A stretch of 64,000 bases of DNA from Bilabrum cf. latius (lineage: Eukaryota). The notes beneath the pieces were generated by a model, which saw only the letters and a list, made by a program, of their open reading frames with translations, made no database searches and was not told the origin of the DNA. The stretch lies in assembly GCA_965178125.1 (NCBI GenBank), contig OZ237741.1, forward strand, positions 558,001 through 622,000, read 5' to 3'. Shown one piece after another: positions 91 through 25,051 of the stretch; position 1 is the first letter of the stretch, and each line of letters opens with the position of its first letter. The translations under genes were made by a program, and so were the position numbers.

Positions 91-517
91 CCCCCCCGCT
101 ACGGTAATAAATAAATTTATTCCCTTCGGTTAAGGATGATTAACATCATCAATAGTTCCAGTCCATCAGAGCTAAAGCTCTTCAGTCCGTTCCACTCCTT
201 TTGGAGCTAGTCGCTCCAAAAGTCAAGGTGAGCCTCTTCATACTGCTACTTCATATAACTGCTTTATCCTTCTAATTATATAAAATCAATTATATATAAA
301 ACTCTATACGATGACCATATCCATACTTTGGGTATATATTATAGTAAGTTCTAATCAAAACGTGGATGTAGCCCTCTTGTGAAGGTGTTCTGGGACTCTA
401 GCCATTTTCTAGCCAAAAGTTCCATCACTTTATGGGACTCCATTATTCAACCTTCTAAACTACCTTCATTATACCCCCTTATCCTCGCTTATACCTTCAC
501 AAATGGAACAAACGCGC
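91..517 (+). repeat. Left terminal inverted repeat (427 bp, starts CCCCCCCGCTACGG)
   Basis: Reverse complement of 24625-25051 apart from scattered mismatches and one mismatch cluster near 325-345. Confidence 0.97.
306..431 (+). repeat. Dyad module copy A (within left TIR)
   Basis: ATACGATG..ATATCCA..TTG / AT-rich spacer / CAAAACGTGGATGTAG..CTCTTGTGAAGGTG / short slot / AAAAGTTCCATCACTTT. Confidence 0.85.
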
Positions 518-542
518 TTTTATTTTTAAATTGTTATAGAGC

Positions 543-559
543 GTTTAAATTGACTTAAA
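543..559 (+). promoter_or_regulatory. Promoter-like motif GTTTAAAnnrnTTAAA
   Basis: GTTTAAATTGACTTAAA, 28 nt before ATG 588; eight copies at 27-29 nt spacing. Confidence 0.75.
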
Positions 560-587
560 AAATATATTTATTATAGGTATATACAGA

Positions 588-1607
588 ATGGAATTATTAA
601 AATGGGAAAATGGAACCTTGAAAGCTACACAACCAAAAGAATATTATGAACGAAATGGATTTTAGGTTAATTTTGAAGGGAAAACCTATCATATAGCAAT
701 GGATAAAGATTATATAAGATGGTTTTTGAAGGACTATAAACCTTATGAAATAATAACAACATTCATAACAGATATGAGTGAAGTATTCAATGGATAGGAT
801 AAATTTAATGAACCTTTGAATACTTGGGATGTTTCAAATGTTAAGGATATGAGTTTAATGTTTCAAAGTTGTAGAAGCTTTAATCAACCATTGAGCAATT
901 GGGATGTTTCTAAGGTTGAAAAAATGTCGTCTATGTTCTATTTTTGTTCTAAATTCAATCAATCATTGAACGATTGGAATGTTAGTAATGTTAGGGATAT
1001 GAGTGGTATGTTTGGTTCTTGTTCAAGATTCAATCAACCATTGGATAATTGGGATGTTTCTAAGGTTGAAAATATGTCCTCTATGTTTAATGGATGTTGG
1101 AACTTCAATCAACCATTGGATAATTGGGATGTTTCTAACGTTGAAAATATGTCCTCTATGTTCCATTATTCTGAATTCAATCAATCATTGAACGATTGGA
1201 ATGTTAGTAATGTTAGGGATATGAGTGGTATGTTTGGTTCTTGTTCAAGATTCAATCAACCATTGGGTAATTGGGATGTTTCTAACGTTGAATATATATC
1301 CTCTATGTTTAATGGATGTTAGAACTTCAATCAACCATTGGATAATTGGGATGTTTCCAATGTCTAGAGTAAGTTTTAGATGTTAAAAGATTGTGAAAGT
1401 TTCAATCATTTAGAGAACGGTATTAAGGGTATAAGAATTGATTATTCTACAACATTGATACCGTTGTTAGAAAGACGAAAACATAAAACCATTAAAAAAA
1501 CAAAGAAATATAGAGAGGAATTAATTGCTAAAGCGTGGCACCCTTCAAGATTAGATTGGGTATTGGATAACGAGGAGCGAGACGAGATAGAGGATAATTT
1601 TAATTAA
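588..1607 (+). CDS. DUF285/BspA-like repeat protein, paralog 1 (339 aa, TAG=Gln)
   Basis: ~25-aa FNQPLxxWDVSxVxxMxxMF repeats; ORFs 816-1322 and 1380-1607 in one frame separated only by TAG; ends TAA; C-terminal EELIAKAWHPSR. Confidence 0.88.
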
Positions 1608-1651
1608 TAGAATTTTAATAATATTAATGATTATTTAATATTATAGTGTGA

Positions 1652-1668
1652 GTTTAAAAAGGCTTAAA
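1652..1668 (+). promoter_or_regulatory. Promoter-like motif
   Basis: GTTTAAAAAGGCTTAAA, 28 nt before ATG 1697. Confidence 0.72.
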
Positions 1669-1696
1669 TAATATATTTATTATAGGTATATACAGA

Positions 1697-2494
1697 ATGG
1701 AAGTTTTAAAATGGGAAAATGGAACCTTGAAAGCTACAAAACCAAAAGAATATTATTTTAGAAAAGATAATTATATTGTGAAATTTGAAGGTAAAACATA
1801 TTACGTAGCTAAAGATACAGATTTTCTTCTTCACGCATTGTAGTTTTTGAAACCTGAATTATTAGTAACAACATTTATTACGAATATGTTAAACCTATTT
1901 GATAATATGATAATTGAATCACCAATAAATTCATGGGATGTTTCAAATGTTAAAGATATGACCGATATGTTTTATGGGTGTCATTCGTTTAATCAACCTT
2001 TAAATAACTGGGATGTTTCAAATGTTGAAGATATGGGCGGTATGTTTAATGAGTGTCATTCGTTTAACCAACCATTGAATAATTGGAATGTTTCAAATGT
2101 TGAAGATATGAGTGAAATGTTTAATGATTGCCATTCATTTAACCAACCATTGAATAATTGGAACGTTTCAAATGTTAAAGATATGTGCGGAATGTTTTAT
2201 GATTGCCATTCACTAAATCAACCTTTAAATAACTGGGATGTTTCAAATGTTGTAGATATGGAATGTATGTTTTCTAATTGTTTTAGTTTTAATCATTTGG
2301 AGAATGGAATTAAGGATGAACGAATTGATTATTCCACGACATTAATCCCATCATTAGAAGAGCGGAAAGATGAAACAATTGAACAAACTAAAAAAATCAA
2401 AGAAGAATTAATTTCTAGAGCGTGGCACCCTTCAAGATTAGATTGGGTATTGGATAACGAGGAGCGAGACGAGATAGAGGATAATTTTAATTAA
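1697..2494 (+). CDS. DUF285/BspA-like repeat protein, paralog 2 (265 aa)
   Basis: Same repeats; leader, N-terminus and last ~70 nt nearly identical to paralog 1; one in-frame TAG. Confidence 0.88.
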
Positions 2495-2535
2495 GTTTTA
2501 TTATAATAATTATTTTATTTTTAATTATTATAGAT

Positions 2536-2883
2536 ATGGTTTATATTGTATCATTAGCGTGGGGTAGTGAATGTTATCATACACACTGGGTTAAAAAGTT
2601 TAATAATAAGGAAGAAGCACAAAAGCTTTATACTGACACTTTAAAAGACCAAGCGAAGAGAGTTGTATGGAGTGATAATTGGAAAGAAGAATATAAAAAG
2701 GAAGCAGAAGGTCAAGTTGAAAGTTTTAATGATGACAACGGAACCGATTTCAAACTATTGAAAGAAGAAGAAATTGATAACCTTACTAATAGTGAATTAG
2801 AAGAGTATATAGAATTATCGTTGATGTATGCTGAAGAATATGATGATTCAAATGAATGGTTTGATATTGAGTTTTTAGAATAA
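2536..2883 (+). CDS. Acidic hypothetical protein (115 aa)
   Basis: ATG to TAA ORF with AT-rich leader. Confidence 0.7.
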   Translation: MVYIVSLAWGSECYHTHWVKKFNNKEEAQKLYTDTLKDQAKRVVWSDNWKEEYKKEAEGQVESFNDDNGTDFKLLKEEEIDNLTNSELEEYIELSLMYAEEYDDSNEWFDIEFLE

Positions 2884-2930
2884 ATTTTTGAATTTTAATA
2901 ATACTATTATTATTATTATTAATATATAGT

Positions 2931-3347
2931 TTAATCCTTGGGTAAGATAAAGTCATCTATAGCCTTTTTGATGATGTCATCCTTCTATTTCTTTATTGAT
3001 TTCTCAATGGCTTCCTTCTCTTTTTTAACCAATAAATCTATGGCTACGGTATCATTTAAGTCTTCACTTAGGCATTCAACATTTTCTTCATTTAGCTTGT
3101 GTATTATTCTAAATGGTTGAACGAAATATGATATATAATCAATTTCTTCAAATTCACTTAATACTCTTTTTTTAAGTCGTTCATTACAATCTGGAGGGAC
3201 ACGAAGGTCATCAAGTTGAAAATGCTTTAACATTGATGGTTTGTGCTTCTCAACATAAATATATACGATTGACATAAAAGTGGAGATGCTTTTATTCTTG
3301 AGTACCTTTTTAACGTTGACACTTGATAACAGGAACTTAACGAACAT
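2931..3347 (-). CDS. Hypothetical protein (138 aa)
   Basis: ORF 2985-3347 read through TAG to TAA at 2931. Confidence 0.65.
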
Positions 3348-3820: not shown

Positions 3821-3860
3821 ATAATTAATTTATAAATATTAAAATCAATTAATATATATA

Positions 3861-5018: not shown

Positions 5019-5054
5019 ATATTATTAATTTATATTTTAATAATATTCAAATAA

Positions 5055-5672
5055 TTACACTCTGTAGGTCATATTATAGACTGACATAACCATCTATGAA
5101 AGCCCTTCAAACGTATTATACACGCTATACTCATTAGGGTTAAAACTTTTCAAAAATTCAGCTCGTGAATGTCTTGCTACATCCTTATCTTCATTATCTA
5201 AATCTTTATGGATTTTGCTATACAGTTTATCGCTGGGTATAGCTACGCATATGCTGGATTTTTTGAATATTTCTTGTGCTAGTTCAAAATCACTTGTTAA
5301 AAAGACTGCTCTATGTTCTGCTTTCTATAACCAATTTTTCTTTACAGACTCAATACTTTTTTTCATAAGTTCAAATTTTAATAATTTAGCCGTTGATAAG
5401 TCCCCTCTTCGTTCTGCTTCGTTTAGGTATAAAACCTGTTTGGTGTCAGCATTAACTTTAAGGACTTCATCTAAATCAACTAATAGAATATTCGGGTCTA
5501 TAGACGTTAAACTTTTGTTAAGTGAACTTTTACCTCCTTTTCGTGGAAGGACTAAACACAATTTTTTACGATTCGCAAGTGAGGAACATAAGTTCCAAAG
5601 GAAGCATCCCGCATATCCTAGAGGAACCAACACCCCACCAACCGTGCTTGCTGTTGCTACTAACTCTGCCAT
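5055..5672 (-). CDS. P-loop-like protein with hydrophobic N-terminus (205 aa)
   Basis: LVLPRKGGKSS Walker A-like and ILLVDLD Walker B-like segments; read through TAG at 5325 to TAA. Confidence 0.6.
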
Positions 5673-5717: not shown

Positions 5718-7796
5718 TTATTTTAATAATCTTAGTTTTTCAAAGTGTTGATATAAGATTTGTTTTACCTTGTCCTTCACATTATGATTACCTTTACCAC
5801 CGGCTATATTAAAATATTCTTGTTCAATTTGTCCTCCTTTATGCTTGCCACATCCACAACTACCGCCCCTGTTCTATGTTTTTATTTTCTAATCAATAAT
5901 TAAATTAATAGCTTTCATTAACATATTATAAGGGTCTTTATTTCCGAAACCTTGAGCTGGTGGTGAATATGTCCATTGAGGCTTCCCGCTTAATTCATAT
6001 CCCGTATCGTTTAGTCTTGATTTTGCTAATGTTCTATCACTTCTGGTTGCTCTTCCTTCTGTATTTGCTCTAGCTACTAAAGACCTAACAGCATCAGTTG
6101 ATAAATTAGGTTGTAAGACTCCGGCTTTAAGCCTTCGTATAATATATTTTAAAGTGTTAATTGTTGGGCTGGCGTCTGTTGGATTTATTCCTCTTGCTTT
6201 TAACTATGATAATATTTCATTTTTATTGCCTTTAGCATTTATTGATTGTCCTATTGATTTGGCTATTTCATCATCTGTTTTCTGTGGTTCTTGTGGTTCT
6301 GCTGGTTCTTGTGCTGGTTCTGCTGGTTGTGCTTGTTGTGCTGGTTCTACGGCTTCTCCATCTCTTGGTTCTTCATCTGGGGCTCCCCTCCGTTCTCTAG
6401 CTTGTCTTTCTTTTTCTTCTTGTTGTCTTTGTGCTTCATCTCGTTCTGCCTGTGCTTGTCTTTGTCTGAATTGAACTTCTGTAAGTTGTCTTCCAAATTC
6501 ATCTGTAATAGGTTCTCCATCTTCATCTACTGCCATCGCTTCACCTTTTCCTCTGTCTTGACCTGCGGGGGGTGCTTGTGGTTGTGAGCCTGTTTTTCCT
6601 GTTAAATAACTGATACCATCCATAACCGATTGTCCTAAAGAACCAAATGTGCTTTGTTGTTGTTCTGGTGATTGTCCTTGTTCTTGTTCTGGTGATTGTC
6701 CTTGTGGTGCTGGTGATGCTTGTAAGAATCCACTAGGTGGAACTGGTGCGGGTGATACTTTTGAAAACTAGCCTGATAAATTTCTACTGGCGTTCTCCCC
6801 TTCTTCTTCTTGTCCTGATGATTGTGATGCCTCTTGTTCTTGTGCTTTTTGTTTAAGTTCTGATAATTTCTTCTAAGCACTTTTTATAAAATCAACTTTA
6901 GACCGTCCTTTTACACCTTTAACATTTGACTATCTAAGTATTGATGCTAGTTCGGTTTTCTTTGGTGCTTTTCTACTACTTGAAGGATTGGCGTTTGCTA
7001 CTCTTTCAAGTGCTTTAATTTGTTCTTGTAGTTCTGGGCTTAATGCTTCTTGTGGTGTTGGAGGGGGTTTTGGTCTTGGTTCTGGTGGCGGTTGCGGGTT
7101 ATCTGGTTCAGGTCTATCAGGTTGCGGGTCATCTCTTTGCTATTGTTGAACGGCTTCAGGAGGATTTAAAACATCCTATAAAGCATTAACAGCGTCATCA
7201 ACTTTTGTTAATTGTGAAACATTCTATCCTTGGGGGGTTTTCGTGATTCCAGCTTGTCGTAAAGCGTTTCGTATTTGAACTGCTTTTAATCCTCTCATAT
7301 CGCTTGGTAATTGTTCTAATACTGCGTCCCGTTGTGCTTTAGTGGTTGTAAATAATCTCATATTAATATTTTTAATTCCATCAAATACCTTTTTCTTATC
7401 GCTTGCTGGTCCTACTACCTACCTTACATTAATATTATTAATGGTATCTACAACCTATCTTTTTAATTTATCCGGTAAATCTGGATTTCTATTTATAAAT
7501 GATTGTAAATTTTCTATTTGATAAATTGGTAATTCTTTTTTAGCGTTCATAGTCTTAATATTTTTAATAATATTTTCAATTCCTTGTTGTTGTTGTTGTC
7601 TTTCAATTCTAACATCAATAGGAACATAATTAGCACGAAGAAAAGCATCATCTTTTAGGGTTTTTCTTCTGGCTTCTGCTTCATCTTCTTCTTGCTATAT
7701 CATTAATCTAACTTGTGGGTCATTTTGTATCCTAAGTTGATTAGACCGTTTCTACATAATACCCTTCAGTAAATCATTAATTGTATTGTTTGACAT
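5718..7796 (-). CDS. Large Q/P/E-rich low-complexity protein (692 aa), candidate virion core protein
   Basis: ATG 7796 after TATATA leader, open to TAA 5718 with only TAG interruptions; contains ORF 6204-6623; C-terminal NRGG, HKGG, IAGG. Confidence 0.72.
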
Positions 7797-9136: not shown

Positions 9137-9228
9137 CTTTTTTTGTGAGGAAGGATAGAAGAAGGAACCAACTTAATATTTTAAACCCGTGTGAATAAAT
9201 GGTTTATTTTATTTTATTATTATATATA

Positions 9229-10299
9229 ATGCTATCTTTACAATATACGGAAAATAGTCATATTGTAGCTATTCAAAAATACAAAAAAACACAATAGAAC
9301 CGGTTTATTTATTACGACCCGAACGCTAAAGATATTCAACACGTCAAAGCGGAAGAGATAACAGATGATGTTTTAAAATCTTATTACGGAGAAAGCCGAG
9401 TAAGATATAACGTTGATAAGGACAAGAAAAGGGAACAATTACATAAACTATTACAAGATGAATATATACGGTCAGTTTAGGAATTTGCGATTAAAGATAA
9501 TAGTCAATATTTACCTTTTCCTATGCTCTTTCCATAGGGGCGTGAATATGTGCGATTATTTGGTAAGAGTGGAAGCGGGAAAAGTCATTTAGCTTTACAT
9601 TATATAAGGATGTATAGAGGATTAAAATATAAAAATATGTATGTTATATCACCAATTCAAGACCCTAAATATAAAAGAGAAGGCGCGACCTTCATTGATA
9701 TAGATGATTTGGTTAAAGAGAATGAAAACACTTTATATAAGGAAAAAATGGCTTATTATAAAAAAATGAAATTAGAATTTAAATATAAAAAATCTTCTTT
9801 GATGAAATCTAAACCTTTAGATGTTGTTATTGAAGCTGAAAGAAAGATAGAGGATTTGAAACCTGAGAAAGATTTAATAGAAAAAGGTTTTAAATTAAAT
9901 GTTGAGTTTTTTAAAAAATTGACCGCTGAACCTAATTTATTTATTCTGGATGATTACGAAGGCTTTAAAAAAAGGAACCAGAAAGCAAAGGCTTATTTTT
10001 TATTGGAAATCCTAGCAACTACAGGAAGGCACACAGCAAGTAGCGTTTTAGACATCACCCACAAAATAAGCGACGGTATGAAGACACGAACCATTATGAA
10101 CGAAATTACAACCCATATCATTTATAAAACAATTACAGCTAAAAGTTTAAAATATATTTTAGAAACAGTCTTAAGTTTTGACGCTCCTACTAGAAAACGA
10201 ATTAAAAAAACCCTTCATTCTCTCCCTCTCTTTGGTTATGTTGCTATTAATGTTGATAATAATTATGTAGTTAGCACAAAAAAAATATTTCTCTATTGA
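9229..10299 (+). CDS. Genome-packaging ATPase, FtsK-HerA/A32-like (356 aa)
   Basis: Walker A GKSGSGKS, Walker B LFILDD, TTGRH arginine-finger motif; directly upstream of protease and capsid genes. Confidence 0.9.
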
Positions 10300-10307: not shown

Positions 10308-10883
10308 ATGAACATAAACGACTTAAATAGACTAGTCCAAACACCGTTATCTCCTTTAGAAATTCAAAAATTAGGTGTAGCACATTTGAATTACAAACCT
10401 AGAATAGTTATTTACGATGATATTATTAAATAGACCTCATCTATTGAACATATTTTTGATGGTTATGACGGCGTAATTATTTATTATCCTAATAAAAAGA
10501 CGGGACTAAATAGCACATACGGTCATTTCATTTCATTGACCAGAAAACCATCAAGCAAAATAATATACTTCTTTGATAGCTATGGAGAAAAACCCGACCA
10601 ATAGAAACCATTTATTAATAGAGACCAATTGTATCAAGGAGAAGGAGAAGAAAATACGCTGGTAAAGTATTTAATTGATTAGAAAATGGAAGGTTGGAAA
10701 ATTGATTATAATCATAAACCGATTTAGAGTTATGCTAACAACAGCGCTACGTGTGGAAGATGGGCTCTATTAAGAAACGCTTTTTCTTTCTTATCAAATG
10801 ATTAGTTTGTAAATGAAATGTTTAGAATATCCAAAATTATGGCTCTTAGTCCTGATTAGTTAGTGGCGTTGCTTCTACATTGA
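10308..10883 (+). CDS. Adenain/Ulp1-like cysteine maturation protease (191 aa)
   Basis: GHF, YFFDSYG, PI(TAG=Q)SYANNSATCGRW give His-Asp-Cys triad plus oxyanion Gln; six in-frame TAG; absent from the ORF track. Confidence 0.92.
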
Positions 10884-10952
10884 ATACTCCGACCATCTAA
10901 TAAAAGGGCTAGAATAAAATAATAAAATATGATTATCTCTAAAATAAAATCC

Positions 10953-11417
10953 ATACGATGGCTATATCCACAAATTGCGTATATATTATAGTGTTTTCTA
11001 GCAAAACGTGGATGTAGGGCCTCTTGTGAAGGTGAAATGTGATCCTAACGCCGGATGGGGTTCGGTGTTGATGCCAGAGTGGGAGCGCGTGAACGTCTCG
11101 TTGGGTTCCGATGGCGGTTGCGACCGGGAAGGTGCGACCAAGCCAACGGATTGCTTGCGATGACGCGCATACCCTCTCTGTGTTCAGGAGAGGGGCGGAG
11201 ATTGGGTAATTTTTGCCCACCCTCCCAACCCCCTCCTCCTCGGCGGAGTAGTGCACGTGCTCTTCCCAGCCCCGGTCAGTCCGGTCAAGGGTCGCGCACA
11301 GGCACAGCTTTGTCAGGTCTTGCCATGTCTGATTGTTAACGAGACTAGGTTGCGCGTACACTCTGGCATCAAAGATATAAGCCCTTTTATTTAGAAAAGT
11401 TCCATCGTTTTAGAAGG
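10953..11417 (+). repeat. Dyad module copy B, with ~360-bp GC-rich insert in the variable slot
   Basis: Arms at 10953-11034; 3' box AAAAGTTCCATC at 11395-11406. Confidence 0.85.
11046..11388 (+). ncRNA. Putative structured non-coding RNA, unidentified family
   Basis: GC-rich island in AT-rich virus; 14-bp perfect closing stem 11068-11081/11359-11372; nested stems with G-U pairs on the + strand; ends at TTTT. Confidence 0.55.
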
Positions 11418-11551
11418 GCAATTTTTCATCCATCTAAATTCAATCAAACTTTTAAATATATTGGTAAAAGTGAAGGGTAAAAATCAAGATGAAATATTAG
11501 ATAAGGTTTATTAATAAATATTTATTTGTATAGCTTTAATATATAAATAAA

Positions 11552-12505
11552 ATGAGTTATAGCGATGAATTTGTAAGATTGAATTTAGTTAGTTCATCTG
11601 TCCCCCACAATTAGACGAGATAGGCGGTAGTGAATGAAACCCGTGAAGGCTTAATATTAAAACAAAGTGAAAATTATTTAACGGCTGTTGAAGAGATGGA
11701 TTTAAATAAATTTATGCTACCGGTGTTTAAACCTGAATATTAGGATGACAGCGGTAAAACCTATTTAAAATTTACTCTTGAGAATAAAACATCAGGAGCC
11801 AGAGCAGGCGATTATATAGTTCTAGGTAAAAAAGCTAAATTTTATTATTCATATTAGGATATTGTAAATGAATTTAATGAAGAGTTAAGCCGAATTTGTG
11901 ATTTGGTAAGCCTTCCAAGTGGTGATAAACCAGTCTTTAAATTTGAAAATAATAAATGGAGTTTATCAACAACTGAAGATTTTAGAGATAATTATTATTT
12001 ATTTGTTAATTTTGAAGCTTTTGCTTTATTTGATAAATTTGAATATGAAGGAATAACAACCACACCGAGTGATTTATTTGCTAAACTTTCATATAATAAT
12101 TCCCCTGCTAGTGGTGATTATGTTTTTATGGCTAGATAGACGAATTTAAATTCTTGGTGCCCTGTTAAATCTATTATCGTAGAAAGTGATATTCCAGTGA
12201 ATAAAGAATTGGTGACCACAAAATCATCTACTGGTGGCTCTATAGCCGTCAATAAATCCCCTATATTAACCAGCTACCCGTATAATCCTAATGACAGCTC
12301 ACCAATAGAAAATATATTATATGTTTCTAATCCTTACCGCTGGTATTCAATGATGAAGGATAGAAGCTTTAAGAGCGTGTCAATGGCGTTCTACTGGGTT
12401 GATAAACAAAATGAAAAGTATCCCGTAATGAATTTTAACGGGGGTGAAGCTCACATTAAACAAGTATTTAAAAAACAAACCGATAATTTAAGTTTAGATT
12501 TTTAA
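11552..12505 (+). CDS. Virophage minor capsid protein (penton), 317 aa
   Basis: NETRxxLI...Y, LPVF, WCPVKSIIVES..PV, YWVDK..YP...IK..FKK pattern of virophage pentons; lies between protease and MCP. Confidence 0.85.
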
Positions 12506-12576
12506 ATAAATTATAGAAGATTATAAAATATGTTTAGATATTAAAAAATTTATATCTATAGTGTATATATAAAAAA

Positions 12577-14466
12577 ATGGCTCAACAAATGGTTCAGAAT
12601 TTACCAGTAAGCATTAAGGCTCCTAAAAGCCTTCAAATGATAACCCCTGAAGATGCTAGTTTAGGAACAGAACTAGGTGTTCAAAAATATACCCGCCGAG
12701 AAATTAGACCATCATCTAATCAATCTAATTCTCTTCTTCCCCTTTCTTTCCCCGTTAATCCTACTAGTAAAACCGTATCAAGGTTTATTCGTCTTCGTCA
12801 TCGTATGACAGTTAGGCTACAACTAGAGCAAGCAGTGCCAGCTCAAACTGCGGGAGGTGATGCTATTACCGCTCAATCTTATCTTAAATCTAGGTTTGGA
12901 ACTAATTCATTACCTACCTTTAAAATGCTTCAAGGTGGTGTTTTAACAATTAATGGATAGCCTTTTACAGTAAAAGTTTATGAATGGGCTGAACCTACTG
13001 AAGTTATGAACAGTGAAGAAACCTTATCCACAATCTCACCCGTTGGACGCCCTGACACTGTTGGTGATTATCGTGAAGTAAGTGATACCCTTAAAAATCC
13101 TTTAGCTTGGGGTTAGGATGTTGGATATAGTGCCGGTGATAGCTTTAGTTATCGTGGAGCATATGGGAATGCTTTTACGACTGTAAGTGCTGATTTCGTT
13201 GCGGGTAATAGAGACCAAATTGATTGGACTATTGATTTTCAAGAAGCTATACCACTAAAAGGAGCAGATGTTGATGTGAATGCTAAATATTTCACCGGTG
13301 TGAGAAGCCTTCAGGTTGATTTAGATTATCACGTAAATGCCATTCAAAGACTGTGTAAGGCTAGTTTTACAAAAGATAACGGAGATATTAACAAAATAAC
13401 GGGTTAGTCAATTATAGGAGAAACAAATACGACCCTTCTTGTTGATGAAGTTGAATTTTAGAGTGGATACGCCCCCCCGACTCGTTGTATGTATAATATG
13501 CCTACAATTAAATTTTAGTCTTAGGCGCCTGTCCCTGTACCTAAATCCGCAACTGAAAATTCTTTAACTTCTTTTGATTATCAATTATCCCGTGAGAATG
13601 GTATCCCTAGTGCTATTATGGTATGTGCCCGCCTTGTTGGTTGTGATGATAACCCTAACTGGGCTAATAGAACTTTACCAATTAGAAGAATAGGTTTCTC
13701 ACTCAATGGAAGCGCTGAGGAATTAGGGGCTGTAGATAATCCACACGAATTATATAGAATTAGTAGAAAGAACGGATATGCTCTTCCTCCTTCATCCTTT
13801 TATGGTTCATCAATTGATGGAAGTGATGGAAACCGCGGTACTGGTTGCTATATGATTTTAAAACCTTCAGATGTTGCTACACTTGCTGGTGTTCAATCTA
13901 ATGTAAATACTGGATTTAATCTTAAAGTTAATCTTTAGTGCTTCAACCCTTATAATAAATATGCGGATGGTGCGTATGAGGATAAATACGAGGTAAAAGT
14001 ATGGATGTTTTATGATAATGTTCTTGTGAATGATAACGGTGTCTATACTGAGGCTGGCGCCCTTATTGAGCCTTCTAAAGTGCTTTCTGAACTTGCTAAA
14101 CGTGGTGATGCTGAAAGTGGTTCTAAAGGTTTCTAGCCTGTATTTGAGGATTTAGATAATTATGCTAATGTTATGGGTGGAAAAGGTCGTTTCTGGTCTA
14201 AGATTGGACGAGCCTTTAAACACGGATGGAACAAGGTTAAAGATTGGGCAAAAAGTGATTAGGCTAAAAACCTAGCGAAAACCATTAGGAATATAGGACC
14301 ACTCAAAAGTCTAACAGGAGACAATAGTGCTCTTGGCAAAGCGGCGGCACATTATGGATATGGAAATAGTGGAGGAGAATTGAATAAACTTGGTGGAAAA
14401 CTTACGATGCGTGGAGGTGCGGCAATGAAAACAGACGATCTTGAGGCCCTTTTAAGCACATCTTAA
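12577..14466 (+). CDS. Virophage major capsid protein (double jelly-roll), 629 aa
   Basis: Single frame broken only by TAG; NPL, RGAY, QL...IP, LPI, LYRISRKNG motifs; GG-rich C-terminal tail; size typical of virophage MCPs. Confidence 0.9.
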
Positions 14467-14468
14467 AC

Positions 14469-14485
14469 GTTTAAAATGACTTAAA
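14469..14485 (+). promoter_or_regulatory. Promoter-like motif
   Basis: GTTTAAAATGACTTAAA, 28 nt before ATG 14514. Confidence 0.75.
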
Positions 14486-14513
14486 TATATATTAACTAAC
14501 TAATATATATCAA

Positions 14514-14804
14514 ATGGAAAAGTTAAATAAAATTATTGAGAATCTACCGCCTACACACGATGTCTATATCCAGACAGAAATTGATGGAGTTTTGACCGTA
14601 ATTTTTACAAACAGTGATTAGGTAAAAGAAATCACCAATCAATTAAAAAAAGACAGTAGAGAGAAGCTATTATATCTCAAATATTCAACCTATAAATGTA
14701 TTATTTAGACGAGGAATAAGTATAGAGATGATGACATTGTACTTCATTATTTGGCTGTTTGTCTATTAGAAAAGAAACCCATTCAATTATATAAGGCAAG
14801 ATAA
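14514..14804 (+). CDS. Hypothetical protein (96 aa)
   Basis: Preceded by the conserved promoter motif at 14469; two TAG; ends TAA. Confidence 0.65.
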
Positions 14805-14855
14805 TCATTTTATTATTTATTTATACATATTAAATAAATATATGACCTGTGAATG

Positions 14856-14968
14856 ATACTTTCCAAAGTAGGTTCATACTTTCCGAAGTTGGTTCACACT
14901 TTTCAAAGTAGGTTCATACTTTCCGAAGTTGGTTCATACTTTTCAAAGTAGGTTCATACTTTCCAAAG
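14856..14968. repeat. Tandem array of a 20-bp unit (ATACTTTCCAAAGTAGGTTC), about 5.5 copies
   Basis: Directly visible; alternating CAAAGTA/CGAAGTT variants; no spacers. Confidence 0.92.
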
Positions 14969-15074
14969 AACTATTTAACCGGTCTAATTAATTAATATTT
15001 TAATAATATTAATTAATATAATCATCTATATCAATAGTGTCTATTTTTTAAGCCCCTTTTTTATAATATAACGC

Positions 15075-15091
15075 GTTTAAAATGACTTAAA
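15075..15091 (+). promoter_or_regulatory. Promoter-like motif
   Basis: GTTTAAAATGACTTAAA, 29 nt before ATG 15121. Confidence 0.75.
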
Positions 15092-15120
15092 GATTATATT
15101 ATATAGATATTATATAGAGA

Positions 15121-15672
15121 ATGTGTAAAAAGTGTATTGAACAAATATAGGAACATACCGGTAATATAAAATGGATGGACATTTAGAAGAAATTAATTCA
15201 TATTGGCTCAACCGTTATTCAAGGTGATAAATTGGGTAATTGTATTTGTGGGCACGAGATACGAACCGAGCACGAAATAGAGCATACCCCTAGTGGATAT
15301 GTTTTTAAAGTGGGTTCTAGTTGTATAAAGTAGATGATAAAGGATAAAGAAAATCAAATTCGTAAAAAATGTTTATATAAGTGGTGTGGAATATGTAAAA
15401 AGGATGTCGCAAGAGACCGATATAATAAGCACTGTGAAGGAATAAGACATATTGAGTTAGAAAAGAAATAGAAAAAGTTAGAGGAAAAAAAGAGGAATGA
15501 AAAAAGATGTGATGTGTGTCTTTGTAAAATGCTTAGAAGTGATTGGAGGACAACCTGTAAGTCTTGTTATACGATTACAAAATATGGTAAAAAGGCGTGT
15601 AAAAAATGCGGAGTGTCTAGAATTAAAGATATGAAATATTCAATTTGTTATAAATGTCATATTGGTAAATAA
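15121..15672 (+). CDS. Cys-rich multi-zinc-finger protein (183 aa)
   Basis: CICGH...VGSSCI, CGIC...HCEGIRH and several CxxC pairs; missed by the ORF track because of TAG. Confidence 0.78.
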
Positions 15673-15743
15673 TAATTAGATATTAATGATAAAATTAATA
15701 TTTAACATATTGATGATGGGAGTTAGAAGGGGCTATATTACAA

Positions 15744-15874
15744 CCTTCTAAAGTGATGGAACTTTTGGGCTAGAAATACGATATCAATCAAATCATCTTC
15801 ATAAAACTAATCCATCCACGTTTTGCTAAATAATACATATACTAATACGCAATTTGTGGATATAGCCATCGTAT
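15744..15874 (-). repeat. Dyad module copy C
   Basis: Same arms and 3' box in reverse orientation; similarity to copy B extends to about 15946. Confidence 0.85.
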
Positions 15875-15994
15875 GGATTTTATTATAGAGATAACCATAT
15901 ATATTTTAATATTCTAGCCTTTTTATTAGATGGTCAAGGTGTTCAATTATTAATAAAGATATCATATTTAATATTAGTATAAATATTAAATTAT

Positions 15995-16568: not shown

Positions 16569-16585
16569 TTTAAGTCATTTTAAAC
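16569..16585 (-). promoter_or_regulatory. Promoter-like motif
   Basis: GTTTAAAATGACTTAAA, 28 nt before ATG 16540. Confidence 0.75.
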
Positions 16586-16632: not shown

Positions 16633-16977
16633 ATGGTTAAATTAAGTGATATTCAAATTGTTAGAACTCAACTTGTTAAAAACAATAAGCCCGTATATAA
16701 TTTCGTGTTCCCTCCTCGTGAAAATGATAATGGATATAATGATTTAGAAATGAAGACTTTATTAAAAAAATATATCTAGAGGTTATTAAAACAAAAGCCC
16801 CATTTAAAAAATTATGATGCGTATGTTAGTTCTCTCTACCCCATAGGCTGGCGAACTGGTTCACCATTTAAATTAAAGGATGATGTAATGTTATTCAGTC
16901 CTTCTTCTCGCTATACCTTCTTAAGTGATGAGCAAGTGAAGAGATTTATATTAATCCTCACTGCTCCGAAACAATAA
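16633..16977 (+). CDS. Hypothetical protein (114 aa)
   Basis: TATATA leader, one TAG, ends TAA; GWRTG motif; directly upstream of PolB. Confidence 0.65.
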
Positions 16978-17009: not shown

Positions 17010-17026
17010 GTTTAAAATGGCTTAAA
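17010..17026 (+). promoter_or_regulatory. Promoter-like motif (PolB)
   Basis: GTTTAAAATGGCTTAAA, 29 nt before ATG 17056. Confidence 0.75.
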
Positions 17027-17055: not shown

Positions 17056-18555
17056 ATGATAAATTACGAAAATGTGTTAAATCAATTAAATATATGCTTT
17101 GGTAAAAAGTATGATAACCCCATTCAATCCGTAAAGTATCTAGAAAAGGTATTTAACGGTAAGCCCATAACTACAAAGAACCTTTATAAACTTGTTTCAG
17201 GTTTAAAAATGGATATAGAGATTAGAGAGAAAGACGATATAAAGGTCTATTATCTAAGTAGGAAAAAAGAGAGTTTTAAAAGGGTTTGTTTAGAATATAA
17301 AGATGGTTCATTTAAAGCCGTCTAGAGGATGAAACCTTTATTTGTGCGGTGCCATAAATCTATGGTTGTTAAATTAACCGATAAAGCCGAAATAATTGAA
17401 AAAGATAAATATAGAGTTGAGAGCCTGACCGATTATCATTCAAAGAAATATTATCTTCATTATACCATTCACGAATGCCCAGAGGATGAAGATATCAAAG
17501 AATGGAGCTTAAGGCTGAGTATAGCAAGTGATGAATTACACGACGAGAACCCATCATTAGATGTAATGAAATATGGAATCAGACAAACAGCCCTTCATTT
17601 CTTTACAATGTTTAATATGATGATAGATAGCCCACCAGATATAACCCCAGAGGAAGCGGTATTTATTGAAGGTTCAACGCGTGGCGGGATTCAATATCAC
17701 AAGAAGGGACAATATGAGGAGTTTATCACCTACGATATAAATAGTCATTACCCCGCCATTATGTCATCAAGTTCATTATTTCCATACGGAAACCCCATAT
17801 ATAAACGAGTTGAAAATAATTAGATAATTAAAAATAATGAAATAGGGATTTATAAATGTAAGGTGAGCCAAGGGAAATGCGACCCGAATATCTTTCAAAT
17901 GATGAAGGTATTTGAAAATGAATTTACTTATTATGTCTTTACTGATATTAATATGTTTGTTAAATATGGGTGTGAGATAGAGATGTCAAGCGACGAATTT
18001 AATTTTATGACCTATGATAAATATATCAAAGGTGAAACACTTTTTAAATCCTATGTCTCAATGTTCTACAAATTAAAAAGCAAATCATATCTAGCAAAAG
18101 AAATATTAAATTCATTATGGGGTAAATTATGTAGTTCCTCTAAAAAGACAATTACATCAAAAGATGATAAAAAAATAAATATAGATAAATTTGATATTGA
18201 CCGTGTAGAAATGGATAATGACGGAGAATTTATTTATCATTTGAAACATAAAGTACCCTTTAAATATAGCTGGGGAAAATTGAAACCTTTTATTCTGGCA
18301 TATGGAAGACAACGATTGATGAAGAAAGTGAATAAGAACAACGCTAAACATATTATACGAATTCACACCGACAGTATCACATTTAACAAAAGATTAAATT
18401 TTAAAGTAGGTAAAGAATTAGGTGAATATAAAGAAGAATAGATAAATGAAGAAGGATAGAAATTAATTATCCACGGATAGAATGATTTAATGGTCGTAAA
18501 TGAAAAAGAAGAAATTATATCAAGGAAAGGAAAAAAAGGCGGTTTAATGCTTTGA
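17056..18555 (+). CDS. Compact family B DNA polymerase, probably protein-primed type (499 aa)
   Basis: TRGG, YDINSHYP (motif A), KEILNSLWGKL (motif B), IHTDS (motif C); three track ORFs joined by TAG; ends TGA. Confidence 0.88.
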
Positions 18556-18582
18556 ATTAAATATTTATTAATTATATAATAT

Positions 18583-18741
18583 ATGATTAATATTATTAGT
18601 AATATCTTTGTTTAGTATGCTATTAAGAAGGCATTAAAGAAGGTAAAAAATAAATTGATGAAGAATCCAAATAATAAAAGACTCTATGAAGAATATAGAA
18701 AGAAAACGGCTCACGCTATTAAAAAATTATCATTTTATTAA
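18583..18741 (+). CDS. Small basic hypothetical protein (52 aa)
   Basis: ATG after AT-rich leader, one TAG, ends TAA; fills the gap between two genes. Confidence 0.45.
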
Positions 18742-20032: not shown

Positions 20033-20072
20033 AAAATCTTTTTATTTATAAAAAATAAATAAATAGATAAAT

Positions 20073-20375
20073 TTAAATTGATATCTCCGGTGGTTTAATC
20101 CCGCTATTAAGCAGGGTTTGATTAAGTTTTTTGATATATTCCTCTAGTATATCCTTTTTTGGTTCTTTGAGATTTTTTTGGTGTTTCTTCGTTCGTTCGT
20201 GTCTCGTTCTGTCCTTCCTTCTATAATAACAATCACACACATCGCATTTAACTTTTTCATTTCCTCTAGCTAAATATTTTTTATTCCATTTGTCTTTGTT
20301 TGTTTTGTAATATTCCTACATATAATTAATTTTTGGTTGTTCCTCTGTATTGCTTGAACTCTAAATATCGCTCAT
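20073..20375 (-). CDS. Small C2H2-type zinc-finger protein (100 aa)
   Basis: KCDVCDCYYRRKDRTRHERTKKH; promoter motif 27 nt upstream; two TAG. Confidence 0.75.
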
Positions 20376-20402: not shown

Positions 20403-20419
20403 TTTAAGTTATTTTAAAC
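20403..20419 (-). promoter_or_regulatory. Promoter-like motif
   Basis: GTTTAAAATAACTTAAA, 27 nt before ATG 20375. Confidence 0.72.
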
Positions 20420-20433
20420 ACATAAAAAAGGTA

Positions 20434-23211
20434 TTAAATATTCTAATCTAATCGTTCGTTGGATTCCTTGTATACGTCCTTCATTTCGGGATACTAATAT
20501 TTATAAACTTCATCAAATAATTCTTTCTCCTTGGTGAATTTAATTCTTAATTCTCTATCCTTTTTATCCTTTTTATTTCCCATACTCCAAGAGGTTTTAA
20601 TATTTCCAAATAACTACTTATATAATTTTACTATTGCCCCGTGTAATTCACTATCGGTTTCTATTGGCTTCTATAATCTCGCCCCGCTTACTTCTACATA
20701 TCTTTTACCCATTTCTATATATTTAATGGATTTCTCATTTTTACGTGTATAACTTAAATCAAATTTATTCAATTTAAGCGTCTATAACATCTCCTACAAT
20801 ATGATTATTTTATTCTTTGTACTTTTTGCTTTCTCATCCTTAAAATCCTTTCTATCCTTTAATTCTGTCATTAGTTTATATTTATCTTTTCTCTTAAAAT
20901 TAGCATAATTAAAATAATTCATTAATTTGTAATTATCAATTAATAACATTTTAATATCCTCCGTTATGGCTGTCTCTGGTAGCCCTAAAATTTCAATTCT
21001 TCTTTTTATATGGTCGTTCTCTACATCAAATGAATCAATCTTTTCTTGTAGTATCTCCATTGTCGCCTCTTTCATCTGCTATTTATTCATTCGTTGTGGT
21101 AATTCTTTATCCACCTATACATCGGCGCCCCTGTTTTTAAGAATAAGCTATAAATGAATATATTTATTTGTTTCGTATGTATCACATTTGAAATTATATA
21201 ATTTCTTGAGTGGTAAATAAACCTTATATGATGCCTCTATCATTGCTTTATGGGCTATCTCTTCATCATCTTCTCCCTCAAAAATATCAATGTCAATATC
21301 ATTCTCCTACATTATCCTTTTTTCGTATTTTTCTAATTTAGTATATAAATCTGTCTATGCGTTAATTTCCATATTTAAGGTCGTCTATACCTCCTTTAAA
21401 TTCTCATATCTTGGATAAATGGATTTTACATCTTCAAAATATATATTCATATATTCGGGATTTCTACATCTTGCCAGTTGCTACATCATCTACGGCGGTA
21501 GAATCGTTTTTCCTTTATATAATCCATACACTGGGCGTTCCATTACACTATCTAATCCGTAAATGACTTTAGGACTAAATATAATTTTATCATATTTATC
21601 TAAGCTCACATCTTCATCAGGTAATAAATCACTAGTAATTAATTTAACGTCCTCTATACCATCTTTACATAACATTTTATAAAATGTATCTGCGTTCTTC
21701 TTGCTATCACACGCCAGTATAAATTTATCTTCACTTTTTAATTTATCGTAAAATTTCTATTGGTCTTTTTCAAAATATACTTTTACGTCCTTAAAATGCT
21801 TATATTTATTCTTAATGAAGCTAAATTCTACTCCAGCACATTTTAAAAATTTCATCGCTATCTGGGATATGTCAGCATCTACAGCAATAAACTATTTACA
21901 CGTCCTTATCATTTTTAAAATAATAAATAATACAAGAACCCTATTATTATTCATCGTGGTAGAACTTAATATATGCTCTATAATGCTATTGAATTCATCC
22001 AAGAATACGATGTATTTAGAAAAATCATAATTCACAATTTGGGGGATACTTTCCGGCGTAATGATAAGAGACTATCCAAAATCAAAATCTTTATTCTGGT
22101 AGAACTCACATTTAATATCTTCATTTAAAAAGCTCTCGTATTGCTCTGTGCCTAAACATACACGGGACACAATGGATAAGAACGGCGTTTGAACCTGTTT
22201 AATATACTTCTTAAATGCTGTTGTTTTACCTGTTCCTGTATCACTTTTTACCACATAGTTATATTCATATTTAAAAAAGCGTTCGGGCTTCTCTATATCA
22301 TCTAACTTAGGTTTATTAATTTCTGTATACCCGTTAATATTCTCGTCATAAGGACGATAATAACACTTTGAAATATACTTATCCTTCACAAATGCCTTTA
22401 AACTTTTATCATTCTAAATTATTGAATTAACTAAATTAAAGGTTTTTAACTTATCAAAATAATGGATAGAGTTCCACACCTTGTTATTTTTGTGGTAGTC
22501 ATATTTATTGCCCTTCTTGCTCCACTCCTACCATTCCTTCTTAAATCCTAAATATTTACTCGCTAGGGTTGCTTTATACCAATCACTATAATTATTTAAA
22601 TATTTCTTATCTAATCTATTTAATATAATTGACCAGTCTTTACCATTTAGAATGAATTTCATCATACAGTTATTCACATCTTGATTATCAATTTTTGATA
22701 TCCTTTTACTCGCCCCTCTCACGTTGGATTTCTTAGAGGATTTAATAATATACTTTTCATAAAATTTATAAAGCTCCTTAGGACATTTTTTTATTTCTAC
22801 ATTATTAATAACTTCGTATTTTGACCCATTTATGCCACTTGGTGGTGCCACTACATAAGCCCCATCATTCCTAATATCAACGTCAATATCTCTATTGGTG
22901 GTAGTTAATATATTCTAATCATATTTAAAATATAGATGATACCCTCCACCCGCTGTTTTAACCGTGAATGTGTTGAACCGCTTCACAAAGTCATCTGAAA
23001 ATTTCTTGATGAATAAATGCTCCTTCTCATCGCTCCATTTATATGAATCAATATCAAACACGGTTATATTATTAATTTCTCCGGTGATAATAGCCATATT
23101 CTGATTATTAAATCGTTTAGGTTCGGGTTTGGTGAGATATCGCCAACTTTTAACATCGGGTATTTTTTGATTGTGCTTGATGGGGAAACTTACAAGGTTT
23201 TTATTATTCAT
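20434..23211 (-). CDS. Prim-pol primase fused to PriCT-2-like domain and SF2 (origin-binding-protein-like) helicase (925 aa)
   Basis: ITVFDID, TAGGGYHLYF, DIRNDGAYVVAPPS; YSDW..EWSK; KSDTGTGKTT, SIVSR, FLDEFNS; five track ORFs share one frame joined by TAG. Confidence 0.88.
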
Positions 23212-23239
23212 TTTCTATATATATTATTAGAAATATATT

Positions 23240-23256
23240 TTTAAACTATTTTAAAC
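23240..23256 (-). promoter_or_regulatory. Promoter-like motif (primase-helicase)
   Basis: GTTTAAAATAGTTTAAA, 28 nt before ATG 23211. Confidence 0.7.
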
Positions 23257-23372
23257 GCCATATTTAATTATAGAGGGCTTAAAGGGGGCTATAATAATTA
23301 ATGAAGGTGAAAGGTGAAGTTTGCCATTTAGCCCTAAAAAATAGATTGTGATATGAATGGTGTATTTTAACA

Positions 23373-23504
23373 CCTTCTAAAGTGATGGAACTATTTTTTA
23401 AAATTATCTTAAGGTCCCATACCACCTTCACAAGAGGCCCTACATCCACATTTTGCTAGAAATACTATATAATTATACGCAATTTGTGGATATAGCCATC
23501 GTAT
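23373..23504 (-). repeat. Dyad module copy D
   Basis: Same arms and 3' box, reverse orientation. Confidence 0.85.
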
Positions 23505-23575
23505 AGATTTTAATATAGCGGTTATATTAAAATATTTAATTAAATTCTAGCCCGTTTATTAAGTTGTAGGGGCTT

Positions 23576-24346
23576 TTAATTATAGATATCTTGTAGTTTT
23601 TCGTGTTCGGCCTTCACATCAAGGGTCAAATATACCCGGCTATTCCAAAACTCAGGGCTGTTTATATCATCGCTATTATTAATATTAAAATTTCTTTTAA
23701 TTTTACAAATCATAATTTGTAATTTACGAGGGCTAAACTATTTCTTAAGAGCCTCTACATCGGGTAAATTAATTTCACCAAAGAATACATCATTTCCATT
23801 TACGGACACTTTATACCTATAGTCTCCGTCTTCTAGCCTTTCCAGGTCTCCAATTATTTTTTTGTCTTCCTCAGGTATCATTTCGTCATCAGTTTCTGCT
23901 TCTATCTAGTCTTGTTCGGTACTAACGCTGTTTATTTCGCTTTCACTGTCAGGCTCCATACCGGTTAATTTTTCATCTATTGCGGTCTATCTAATTAATT
24001 CTGGCGGTTGTAAATCATCTACATCATTATAAATTTTATTATTTGGTGGTTTGTAGTCATTAAATTTATCTAGAATGTATGTTTGCTTAATTTCAACTTG
24101 GTCGTTATTATCGTGTTGTATCTTCTGTTTCTCTTCTTTCTTGGGTTTTTTGACGGCTTTTTTCTCTTTAATATCACTAACTATATTTTTATTAATTAAT
24201 TTTGGTTTTGAAAACTTACCACCTAAATCTACATACGTAGTAATGGTCTCTAAAATTTTTTGCGTACTATCTGTAATATGGTCTGTAGCCTTATAAATCT
24301 GCTTCATTAGGACAGGATTTTCAATGACATAATTATTAAAGTTCAT
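23576..24346 (-). CDS. Hypothetical protein (256 aa)
   Basis: ORF 23987-24346 read through TAGs to TAA 23576; C-terminus weakly recalls Tlr 6F (VFFG...SPEFWNSR). Confidence 0.65.
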
Positions 24347-24624
24347 ATCTATAATACTAAGTTATAATTTTTGAGTTTTAAAAAAACGCTTAGAGGTGGG
24401 GGGGTTATGTGGGGGTTATCCCTGCCTATAGGCTAGGGTTATGAAGGGGGTTATGTGATGTATAGGCATAGATTAATACTTAAAAACATATACACCCTTA
24501 ATAAAGGTTTAAACTTTAATATTAAATCCTGTTGGTTAGACCCTCATATTTCCTAAGAAATGCTGAACTCCAATATTCAGGTTCAGGTTCATTTTGACGA
24601 TGACGAGTGTAGCGAGTTGCTGTT

Positions 24625-25051
24625 GCGCGTTTGTTCCATTTGTGAAGGTATAAGCGAGGATAAGGGGGTATAATGAAGGTAGTTTAGAAGGTTGAATAAT
24701 GGAGTCCCATAAAGTGATGGAACTTTTGGCTAGAAAATGGCTAGAGTCCCATAACACCTTCACAAGAGGGCTACATCCACGTTTTGATTAGAACTTACAT
24801 ATACTAATACGCAATTTATGGATATGGTCATCGTATAGAGTTTTATATTAAATTGATTTTATATAATTAGAAGGATAAAGCAGTTATATGAAGTAGCAGT
24901 ATGAAGAGTATCACCTTGACTTTTGGAGCGACTAGCTCCAAAAGGAGTGGAACGGACTGAAGAGCTTTAGCTCTGATGGACTGAAACTATTGATGATGTT
25001 AATCATCCTTAACCGAAGGGAATAAATTTATTTATTACCGTAGCGGGGGGG
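24625..25051 (-). repeat. Right terminal inverted repeat (427 bp, ends CCGTAGCGGGGGGG)
   Basis: Reverse complement of 91-517. Confidence 0.97.
24711..24836 (-). repeat. Dyad module copy E (within right TIR)
   Basis: Mirror of copy A with a different spacer. Confidence 0.85.

Follow-up and report, generated by a model that had tools for sequence, protein, structure and literature searches.

Five copies of a non-coding module, spread through an integrated virus-like element, raise the question of what such an element needs them for. The element lies in a stretch of 64,000 nucleotides from Bilabrum cf. latius (assembly GCA_965178125.1, contig OZ237741.1, positions 558,001 to 622,000 of the forward strand). 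We call this whole stretch the window and count all positions from its first letter. The element is AT-rich, occupies 91-25051 (about 25 kb) and has a GC content of 31.0%, as opposed to 60-61% in its flanks (the first 90 nt and the 39 kb after it). Judged by its sequence, it is a mavirus-like virophage integrated in a eukaryotic genome. The module is 170-240 nt long and is present in five copies in the 64 kb. We argue that the modules are most likely protein-bound control sites, for example replication origins. A transcribed RNA with two hairpins is nearly as likely.

The five copies, designated A to E, had been named in an earlier note on this DNA, and pattern matching, blastn and a profile search all agree with it on their positions and orientations. 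The dyad pattern drawn from the copies (ATATCCAYA, a gap of 25-40 nt, AAAAYGTGGATG) has exactly five matches in the 64 kb and none in any of 100 shuffles. With copy D as the query, blastn aligned copy B at 88% identity over 111 nt (E=3e-34). The other copies followed with E-values of up to 7e-23, namely E at 80% over 141 nt, A at 78% over 143 nt, and C at 90% over 77 nt and 96% over 23 nt. An nhmmer profile of the five copies revealed no sixth, degenerate copy in the window; the next match (E=0.009) was the dyad against itself reversed. The profile also gave longer modules than the extents first proposed, which were too short (Table 1). Copies A and E are both inside the 427-nt terminal inverted repeats and therefore are not independent, so that there are four independent lineages, A, B, C and D. 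A scan of genome contigs with the pattern gave 39 loci with one match each, none of them alike beyond the pattern (best blastn E=0.002, 40 nt of AT-rich sequence). In a phage collection the module gave chance matches only (6 records, E of at least 0.06) and the capsid protein gave none; with that protein as the query, a word-indexed search gave no match at E≤1e-5.

In module orientation, copies B, C and D begin with an upstream part, AATAAA-GGGCTAGAAT, found only in these three and located 17-68 nt past a co-oriented stop codon. The claim that B, C and D start after such a stop holds only if TAG is read as a sense codon; the stops then stand 17, 68 and 19 nt before the extended modules. The parts that follow are an AT-rich linker (29-32 nt), block I (37 nt, ending in the left arm of the dyad), a spacer (19-20 nt), block II (15 nt, the right arm), a link of 3-4 nt, block III (14 nt), a slot, block IV (18 nt) and a tail able to form another small hairpin. 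The earlier note is right about the arms, about the CTCTTGTGAAGGTG box with its degenerate form in C and about the AAAAGTTCCATCACTTTAGAAGG-like box. The spacer is AT-rich and near-constant in length in 5/5 copies. The slot is 27 nt long in A, C, D and E rather than ~30 nt, and in B it does reach ~360 nt in total, made up of 36 nt and a 324-nt insert. The arms are ~17 nt long and pair at 10 + 4 positions around a conserved 3-nt mismatch, and their cores are 42 bp apart in three copies (B, C and D) and 43 bp apart in the other two. Blocks III and IV, separated by the 27-nt slot in all copies but B, are mutually complementary.

Conservation is distributed very unevenly over these parts. Among the four lineages, the identity of blocks I, II, III and IV is 0.89, 0.93, 0.86 and 0.92, respectively. 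In the variable parts it is 0.50 (dyad spacer), 0.33 (slot) and 0.56 (linker), which by our own estimate is near random for DNA of 69% AT. In copies A and E the spacer has a +1 indel, for which a -1 indel in the link that follows block II compensates, and thus the distance from block I to block III is kept. Since the spacers are saturated while blocks and spacing are preserved, the comparison argues for selection on each copy and against mere recent duplication. Copies B and C have the same block I, from which that of D departs at a single position. The modules are oriented like the neighbouring genes in each of the three independent cases (A/E, B and D), and C follows its upstream gene.

The same alignments bear on a different explanation, that the modules are recombination-prone repeats without a function of their own. 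They would be spread copies of a segment of the terminal repeat, kept alike by gene conversion and acting as crossover points for the swap or inversion of gene blocks. The two terminal repeats differ at 16/427 aligned positions, and ten of the differences are in one 18-column stretch of the dyad (332-349 versus 24793-24810). Here E matches C exactly over 22 nt, and A is the same as B over 14 nt (the spacer of A). Because the differences cluster where E equals C and A equals B, they indicate that short-tract gene conversion between modules has happened. Copies B and C are inverted relative to each other (88 nt at 86% and 46 nt at 83%) and enclose the capsid block 10879-15947. For endogenous virophages, PMC8547959 and a Halocafeteria preprint (10.64898/2026.07.28.741278) report recombination and the replacement of modules. 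However, conversion alone would homogenise the spacers, and near-random spacers beside kept blocks and lengths need selection on each copy. The copy boundaries are gradual, with no terminal repeats or target duplications of their own, and the virophage encodes no tyrosine or serine site-specific recombinase, only an rve integrase. For the recombination sites suggested in the earlier note, the short-tract exchange and the B/C pair speak in favour, and no site-specific recombinase is encoded; we regard function-free repeats as distinctly unlikely.

Miniature inverted-repeat transposable elements or other transposons were rejected as an identity of the modules: the dyad lies inside the module, similarity tails off gradually in both directions, and again there are no terminal repeats or target duplications of their own. 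The motif CCWTCTAA flanks A/E, B and C on either side; being the same in all copies, it does not represent a target duplication.

Table 1. Modules of the integrated virophage and the features discussed with them (positions in the window)
Feature	Position	Strand	Description
Module A	270-470	+	In the left terminal repeat; dyad 317-368; boxes III/IV to ~431; tail to ~458; nhmmer E=3e-55
Module B	10899-11455	+	Left part 10899-11048 (dyad 10964-11014), right part 11373-11455; nhmmer E=3e-42 and 6e-12
Module C	15711-15927	-	Between convergent genes; box III degenerate; dyad 15813-15863; nhmmer E=2e-56
Module D	23334-23560	-	Between gene 23576-24346(-) and the primase-helicase gene; dyad 23443-23493; nhmmer E=7e-58
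Module E	24672-24872	-	In the right terminal repeat; dyad 24774-24825; nhmmer E=8e-57
Left terminal inverted repeat	91-517	+	427 nt, 96% identical to the right one
Right terminal inverted repeat	24625-25051	-	427 nt, 96% identical to the left one
GC-rich insert in the slot of module B	11049-11372	.	324 nt, 60.2% GC, own terminal inverted repeat
Prim-Pol/SF2 helicase gene	20434-23211	-	925 aa, 20 in-frame TAG; candidate initiator
Competing origin candidate	14856-15017	+	5.7 tandem 20-nt units (14856-14968), then a perfect 13-bp AT palindrome (14987-15017)
GTTTAAAATGACTTAAA sites	543-559, 1652-1668, 14469-14485, 15075-15091, 17010-17026		Promoter-like motif
GTTTAAAATGACTTAAA sites	16569-16585, 20403-20419, 23240-23256	-	Promoter-like motif

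We rank replication origins first because of the fold of the virophage's own helicase, a protein of superfamily 2 (SF2), and the constraint on spacing. The gene of this primase-helicase is 130 nt from module D. Its structure was predicted from 53 sequences with a mean predicted local distance difference test score (pLDDT) of 87.3. The four best fold matches of the model in the PDB are chains of the origin-binding protein (OBP) of herpes simplex virus 1 (HSV-1) bound to the origin OriS, with E-values from 4.6e-15 to 2.2e-13 over 737-752 columns; the next best helicase has E=2.6e-9. At the sequence level the phmmer match to OBP is weak (E=0.007, query residues 320-456 only), and Pfam PF02399 is found in 1 among the 120 listed homologues of the primase-helicase.

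In OriS, according to PMC12543377, an AT-rich spacer of critical length is flanked by Boxes 1 and 2 in inverted orientation; a 6-bp deletion abolishes replication, and a third inverted box folds into a hairpin after unwinding. The same source gives HSV-1 three redundant origins, with two of the three in inverted repeats. By analogy, the inverted arms of the module (...CTATATCCACAAATTGC and GCAAAACGTGGATGTAG), 42-43 bp or about four helical turns apart, would flank an easily melted AT-rich spacer. A sequence-specific initiator may bind both arms, bend and open the spacer, and load the replication enzymes; the best candidate for it is the virophage's own Prim-Pol/OBP-like helicase. Blocks III and IV could be an auxiliary site, or a hairpin formed once the strands separate. 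The two copies in the terminal repeats and the three internal ones would then be redundant origins, comparable to the two OriS and one OriL of HSV-1. That the helicase binds the arms, that unwinding follows and that the modules act as origins is all inferred, and redundant origin-like sites of the herpes OriS type are a tentative first choice.

Several observations weigh against this choice. The TM-scores of the fold matches to OBP are low (0.29-0.37, with a root-mean-square deviation of 17-19 Å); this is expected for a multi-domain protein and is also a warning, and the model does not establish homology of the helicase to OBP in DNA binding. A regular-expression search of the helicase found no RVKNL-like DNA-recognition motif, and the HSV Box 1 core GTTCGCACTT has no match in any module at ≤2 mismatches. 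Within the element, the matches to this core cluster at 14872-14961, in an array of iterons. The array and the AT palindrome after it are a more classical origin candidate than the modules, whose arms are unlike the Box 1 core. An origin does not predict that module orientation tracks the neighbouring genes, and five origins in 25 kb are many. The complementarity of blocks III and IV, together with the 10/12 oppositions of the G-U type on the sense strand over both helices, favours RNA, although the structure was chosen on that strand. Taken together, the idea of an origin served by an OBP-like helicase has gained from the fold matches to OriS-bound OBP, the phmmer match and the kept spacing, while the arms and the missing recognition motif speak against it.

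The iteron array consists of two alternating subunits with a 40-nt period at 95%. Its units contain GTTCAYACTT, which is 8-9/10 identical to the HSV Box 1 core; this likeness comes from a single post-hoc test with a chance of ~2% by our own estimate and is a lead only. The iteron units and block IV of the modules have AAAGT...ACTTT in common. The motif AAAGT-N5-9-ACTTT has seven occurrences where 0.40 are expected; modules and iterons account for three each and the host for one, and we do not rely on it. TYCAYAC was rejected as a binding core common to arms and iterons, since its count was unconvincing (35 versus 24.7 expected, reached in 4/100 shuffles).

A full-text literature search, with figures and supplements outside its reach, found no mapping of a virophage replication origin or initiator site and no account of repeats like these. 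Relatives of the helicase are common on contigs of 19-27 kb, with 260 at E≤1e-20 among the candidates scored; the closest include some at 45-50% identity.

The orientation of the modules and the pairing of blocks III and IV would fit a module that acted as a transcribed RNA element. Its sense strand would form two hairpins (I/II and III/IV) with the spacer and the slot as loops. The RNA may come from a short promoter of the late type just ahead of block I or belong to the untranslated regions of the neighbouring genes. It may work as a signal for 3' ends or for processing, or else be a small non-coding RNA. We ran RNAalifold on A, C, D and E, leaving B out of the derivation of the structure. 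The predicted stems coincide exactly with the conserved blocks and the loops exactly with the variable parts. In the main helix of hairpin 2, all six one-sided changes keep pairing by G-U (three in A/E, two in B and one in C; hand tally). Over both helices, the transition-type non-Watson-Crick oppositions are of the G-U type on the sense strand in 10/12 cases, a hand tally that leans to the strand on which the structure was chosen. The dyad folds better on the sense strand than on the antisense strand in 4/5 copies, and module orientation agrees with that of the flanking genes. Copies B, C and D follow stop codons of genes that have no simple hairpin at the stop (D has one ~40 nt downstream, in the AT linker). 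After the stops of two upstream genes the dyad is the most stable local hairpin, with -17.6 and -20.0 kcal/mol versus a background of -5.3 (standard deviation 3.5). A loop would also tolerate a self-folding insert such as that of copy B.

There are points on the other side as well. Compensatory double changes were found in 0/28 predicted pairs. Hairpin 2 is weak (z of about -0.6 to -1.6, and none in C), with the antisense strand better in A and E, and its inner helix TGGGAC/GTTCCA is broken in C (four pairs) and partly in B. The copies have no Rfam match at the gathering score; at E≤10 there are five weak unrelated matches, none common to the copies, and ARAGORN predicts 0 genes. Copies A and E have no upstream gene whose transcript could end there, and a hairpin has no need of an exactly kept 27-nt loop. 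The earlier suggestion of small-RNA expression survives in this form, as transcribed blocks that pair as two hairpins with most one-sided changes compatible with G-U, and is not supported in its payload part. We consider such an RNA nearly as likely as origins; should it prove right, the modules would represent a novel type of regulatory RNA in virophages. A TGCG core of mimivirus late promoters was considered for the left arm and dropped, as the review consulted does not name it.

Dispersed palindromic sites could also bind a protein without being origins. Like the homologous regions (hrs) of baculoviruses, the modules would then be dispersed enhancers or regulatory sites, where a dimeric protein would bind the palindrome and tune nearby transcription. 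The binder might be a zinc-finger protein of the virophage (15121-15672 or 20073-20375) or a factor of a giant virus. The dispersed intergenic copies, the imperfect palindrome, the strong conservation of blocks and the fixed spacing are consistent with such sites. By our estimate modules A, B and D end ~110-140 nt upstream of a co-oriented ATG, and the Cys-rich gene 15121-15672 adjoins module C. The analogy is drawn from PMC4535591, in which hrs are reported to act as origins and enhancers. Yet there is one unit per locus, and Tandem Repeats Finder detected no array at any of the five. No co-oriented gene lies downstream of C, and the zinc-finger proteins gave no significant match to a protein family (best zf-U1, E=0.018, below the cut-off). 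A purely hr-like role is, in our opinion, a minor and rather improbable alternative to origins.

Block I has an ATG in 5/5 copies, and this gives the last alternative for the conserved blocks, a mini-gene for a short hydrophobic peptide. A, E and B encode 22-23 residues that end at one shared TGA in block III, a frame that the paired +1/-1 indels restore in A/E. However, D stops after 8 residues and C runs to 43. The identity of block I in B and C and its single difference in D take in the third codon positions, the few changes relative to A/E have no synonymous-site bias, and coding leaves the inverted arms unexplained. A peptide is barely credible.

The insert of copy B requires separate consideration, since the slot had been described as a payload site. 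The GC content of the insert (Table 1) is that of the host (60.6%) and not that of the element. Its terminal inverted repeat is perfect over 14 nt (11068-11081 / 11359-11372) and 74% identical over 35 nt. Relative to copy D, there is no target-site duplication beyond 1-2 A residues at the junctions, and blastn found no second copy within the 39 kb of host sequence. A group I or II intron, a ribozyme, a small nuclear RNA and a short interspersed nuclear element were rejected as identities of the insert, with no Rfam match better than E=1.3. The slots are alignable in pairs: A/E and C have ATTT(T)CTAGCC in common, and B and D have CCT(T)AAGATA.

If the module were an expression cassette, a promoter and a 3' box would express the content of the slot, and copy B would have captured a structured RNA derived from the host. 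The insert lies exactly in a slot, although the five slots together make up ~0.6% of the element by our own estimate, and this position remains notable. The insert folds strongly (z=-4.5, with 0/100 shuffles as stable), and its paired ends would hold the flanking boxes close. Its opposite strand, however, folds almost equally well (z=-4.1), as that of a foldback DNA element would; its GC content equals that of the host; and it has no RNA family match. The other four slots are a linker of equal length rather than differing cargoes. Host transposon pieces are documented in intergenic virophage DNA: PMC8547959 describes solo repeats of Ngaro elements in Cafeteria endogenous mavirus-like elements (EMALEs), biased to intergenic DNA, and the Halocafeteria preprint describes Mutator-like elements (MULEs) in virophages. 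The payload slot is not supported, given that four of the slots are a diverged linker of equal length and the only large content is the host-like 324 nt without an Rfam or tRNA match; a cassette is very unlikely. The insert sits in the least constrained part of the module, and the economical reading is a secondary insertion; judged by its composition, it is probably a later insertion of host-like DNA and not cargo. One could still imagine that the loop of the second hairpin is a tolerated docking place for structured RNA, that the module is a transcription unit expressing what sits there and that copy B makes a host-derived, structured 324-nt RNA while a giant virus infects the cell. Virophages would then have a novel means of carrying non-coding cargo; we consider this highly improbable.

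The modules are not the ordinary gene promoters, because a separate promoter-like motif, GTTTAAAATGACTTAAA, precedes ATGs. It has eight matches at ≤3 mismatches against 0.19 expected, all ~30-50 nt before an ATG (Table 1), and one of them is between module D and the helicase gene. The motif contains AATGAC and resembles the chlorovirus early motif AATGACA, which is named in PMC5294985. In addition, (T)CTATAG is located near the ATG of many virophage genes. AT-rich hairpins of 10-16 bp stand straight after many stop codons (2884-2927, 20036-20068, 1608-1650, 5020-5055 and 18556-18590), and short AT hairpins are present at both convergent gene pairs as well, consistent with 3'-end signals of the hairpin type. 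Simple 3'-end hairpins were rejected as a whole explanation of the modules: the module is far more elaborate and is present also where no gene precedes it.

The identification of the element as a virophage is based on its proteins. The minor capsid protein matches PDB entry 6g41 (E=6.5e-24) and Pfam PF21507 (E=5e-7), and the major capsid protein matches PDB entry 6g45 (E=3.6e-8); we take 6g41-6g45 to be mavirus proteins. The rve integrase (PF00665, E=5.8e-11) has a weak chromo-domain match, below the cut-off. In addition to the Prim-Pol and PriCT-2 helicase, the element encodes two DUF285 repeat proteins and a DUF5872 protein. A putative packaging ATPase (9199-10299) and a putative protease (10308-10883) are labelled by position and a Walker A motif only, with no significant family match.

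Several other genes deserve mention. The two DUF285 proteins are paralogous, lie just inside the left end (588-1607, E=1e-86, and 1697-2494, E=8e-55) and are encoded by 75-nt tandem units; their flanks are duplicated too (123 nt at 88% and 218 nt at 83%). The minus-strand gene 5718-7796 encodes a low-complexity protein of 692 aa rich in Q, P and E, with a local GC content of ~40%, 13 TAG and 64 CAA codons and no family match. The open reading frame (ORF) 17056-18555 encodes 499 aa, in a region that also takes in 16633-16977; it is short for a protein-primed polymerase and may be truncated or split. Its YDINSHYP, KEILNSLWG and IHTDS we take to be motifs A, B and C of family B DNA polymerases. 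The assignment to DNA polymerase B was not retained, as the ORF matches no sequence in Pfam or the PDB.

Under the standard code the AT-rich element has short ORFs only, and with TAG as a sense codon it resolves into a tidy set of non-overlapping genes. There are 100 in-frame TAG codons across 24 virophage genes, whose true stops are TAA (19) and TGA (5). Decay of the genes by deamination of CAG was ruled out as a source of the in-frame TAGs: CAG occurs 15 times in frame versus 100 and 34 times out of frame, and overall it is only mildly depleted (observed/expected 0.75). In an alignment of the primase-helicase with 19 homologues, its 20 TAG columns are 6.4-fold enriched for Gln, which makes up 19/19, 15/19 and 11/19 residues in three of them. 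Two TAG columns are conserved as other residues (Asp 16/19 and Arg 17/19), and for this reason Gln, although likely, is unproven; from the alignment, TAG probably encodes Gln in both virophage and host. In the host flank (25052-64000), reading TAG as sense gives longest ORFs of 2594, 2398 and 1228 codons; the standard code gives 644, 542 and 500, and a code in which TGA is sense gives 1036, 834 and 781. One long host ORF read in this way holds kinase and PH domains. The virophage and its host thus have a UAG-sense genetic code in common. Nuclear reassignment of UAG alone is known (PMC5304391 and PMC11687900), and endogenous viruses with the variant code of their host are reported for Streblomastix in PMC10120064. 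A suppressor tRNA or tRNA-like gene, suggested by TTCTAGC in the spacer, was rejected: ARAGORN found nothing and the motif is absent in C. No suppressor is needed, because the host itself reads TAG as sense.

The element splits a minus-strand host ORF (window positions 1-96 / 25046-25523), whose frame is open over the empty site when 5 or 6 bp are taken out. The flanking hexamers CTGGTC and CAGGTC agree at 5/6 positions, resembling a target-site duplication. The interrupted ORF has no Pfam match; by its look it may be glycoside-hydrolase-like. Further into the host flank, genes 29457-31274, 31974-33887 and 59342-61837(-) are three paralogs with RRM repeats, a C-terminal WW domain and Cys/His-rich N-termini, and parts of them are nearly identical among the copies.

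Four known systems invite comparison with the modules. Giant viruses such as mimivirus have hairpin-type 3'-end signals, the so-called hairpin rule. Like these signals, the modules include intergenic palindromes after stop codons, and the element itself has short AT hairpins after many genes. The module is larger, however, with a 20-nt loop, an internal mismatch and a sequence conserved among loci, and it is present in terminal repeats without a preceding gene. Baculovirus hrs are likewise dispersed AT-rich intergenic repeats with an imperfect palindrome as a core, here at five loci. They differ in being tandem, with 3-8 units per locus, whereas the modules are single and asymmetric (a dyad and two boxes) and the virophage has no IE-1-like protein. 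For the insert alone, the Cafeteria EMALEs with Ngaro and the Halocafeteria virophages with MULEs offer the same picture of a GC-rich host-like piece in AT-rich intergenic DNA; the 324-nt piece, unlike those insertions, matched no transposon family and has no second copy in the 39 kb of host sequence.

The comparison with OriS and OriL of HSV and the UL9 protein, OBP, is the closest to our preferred reading of the modules as origins. There are clear differences: the element is a protist virophage and not a herpesvirus, its helicase is fused to a Prim-Pol domain and has no RVKNL-like motif, and the arms of the module are unrelated to Box 1. The arms are ~17 nt long with a 3-nt internal mismatch, and the spacer between arm ends is ~20 nt versus 18. 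The modules add the conserved blocks III and IV downstream and are oriented along the neighbouring genes. In common with the HSV origins, the modules have inverted boxes around an AT-rich spacer whose length matters and several redundant copies, two of them in inverted repeats, and the same genome codes for an SF2 helicase to which OBP has the closest fold. If the modules bind the OBP-like primase-helicase, virophage replication would be linked to the herpesvirus origin/OBP system, and each such helicase would be predicted to have a dyad of its own.

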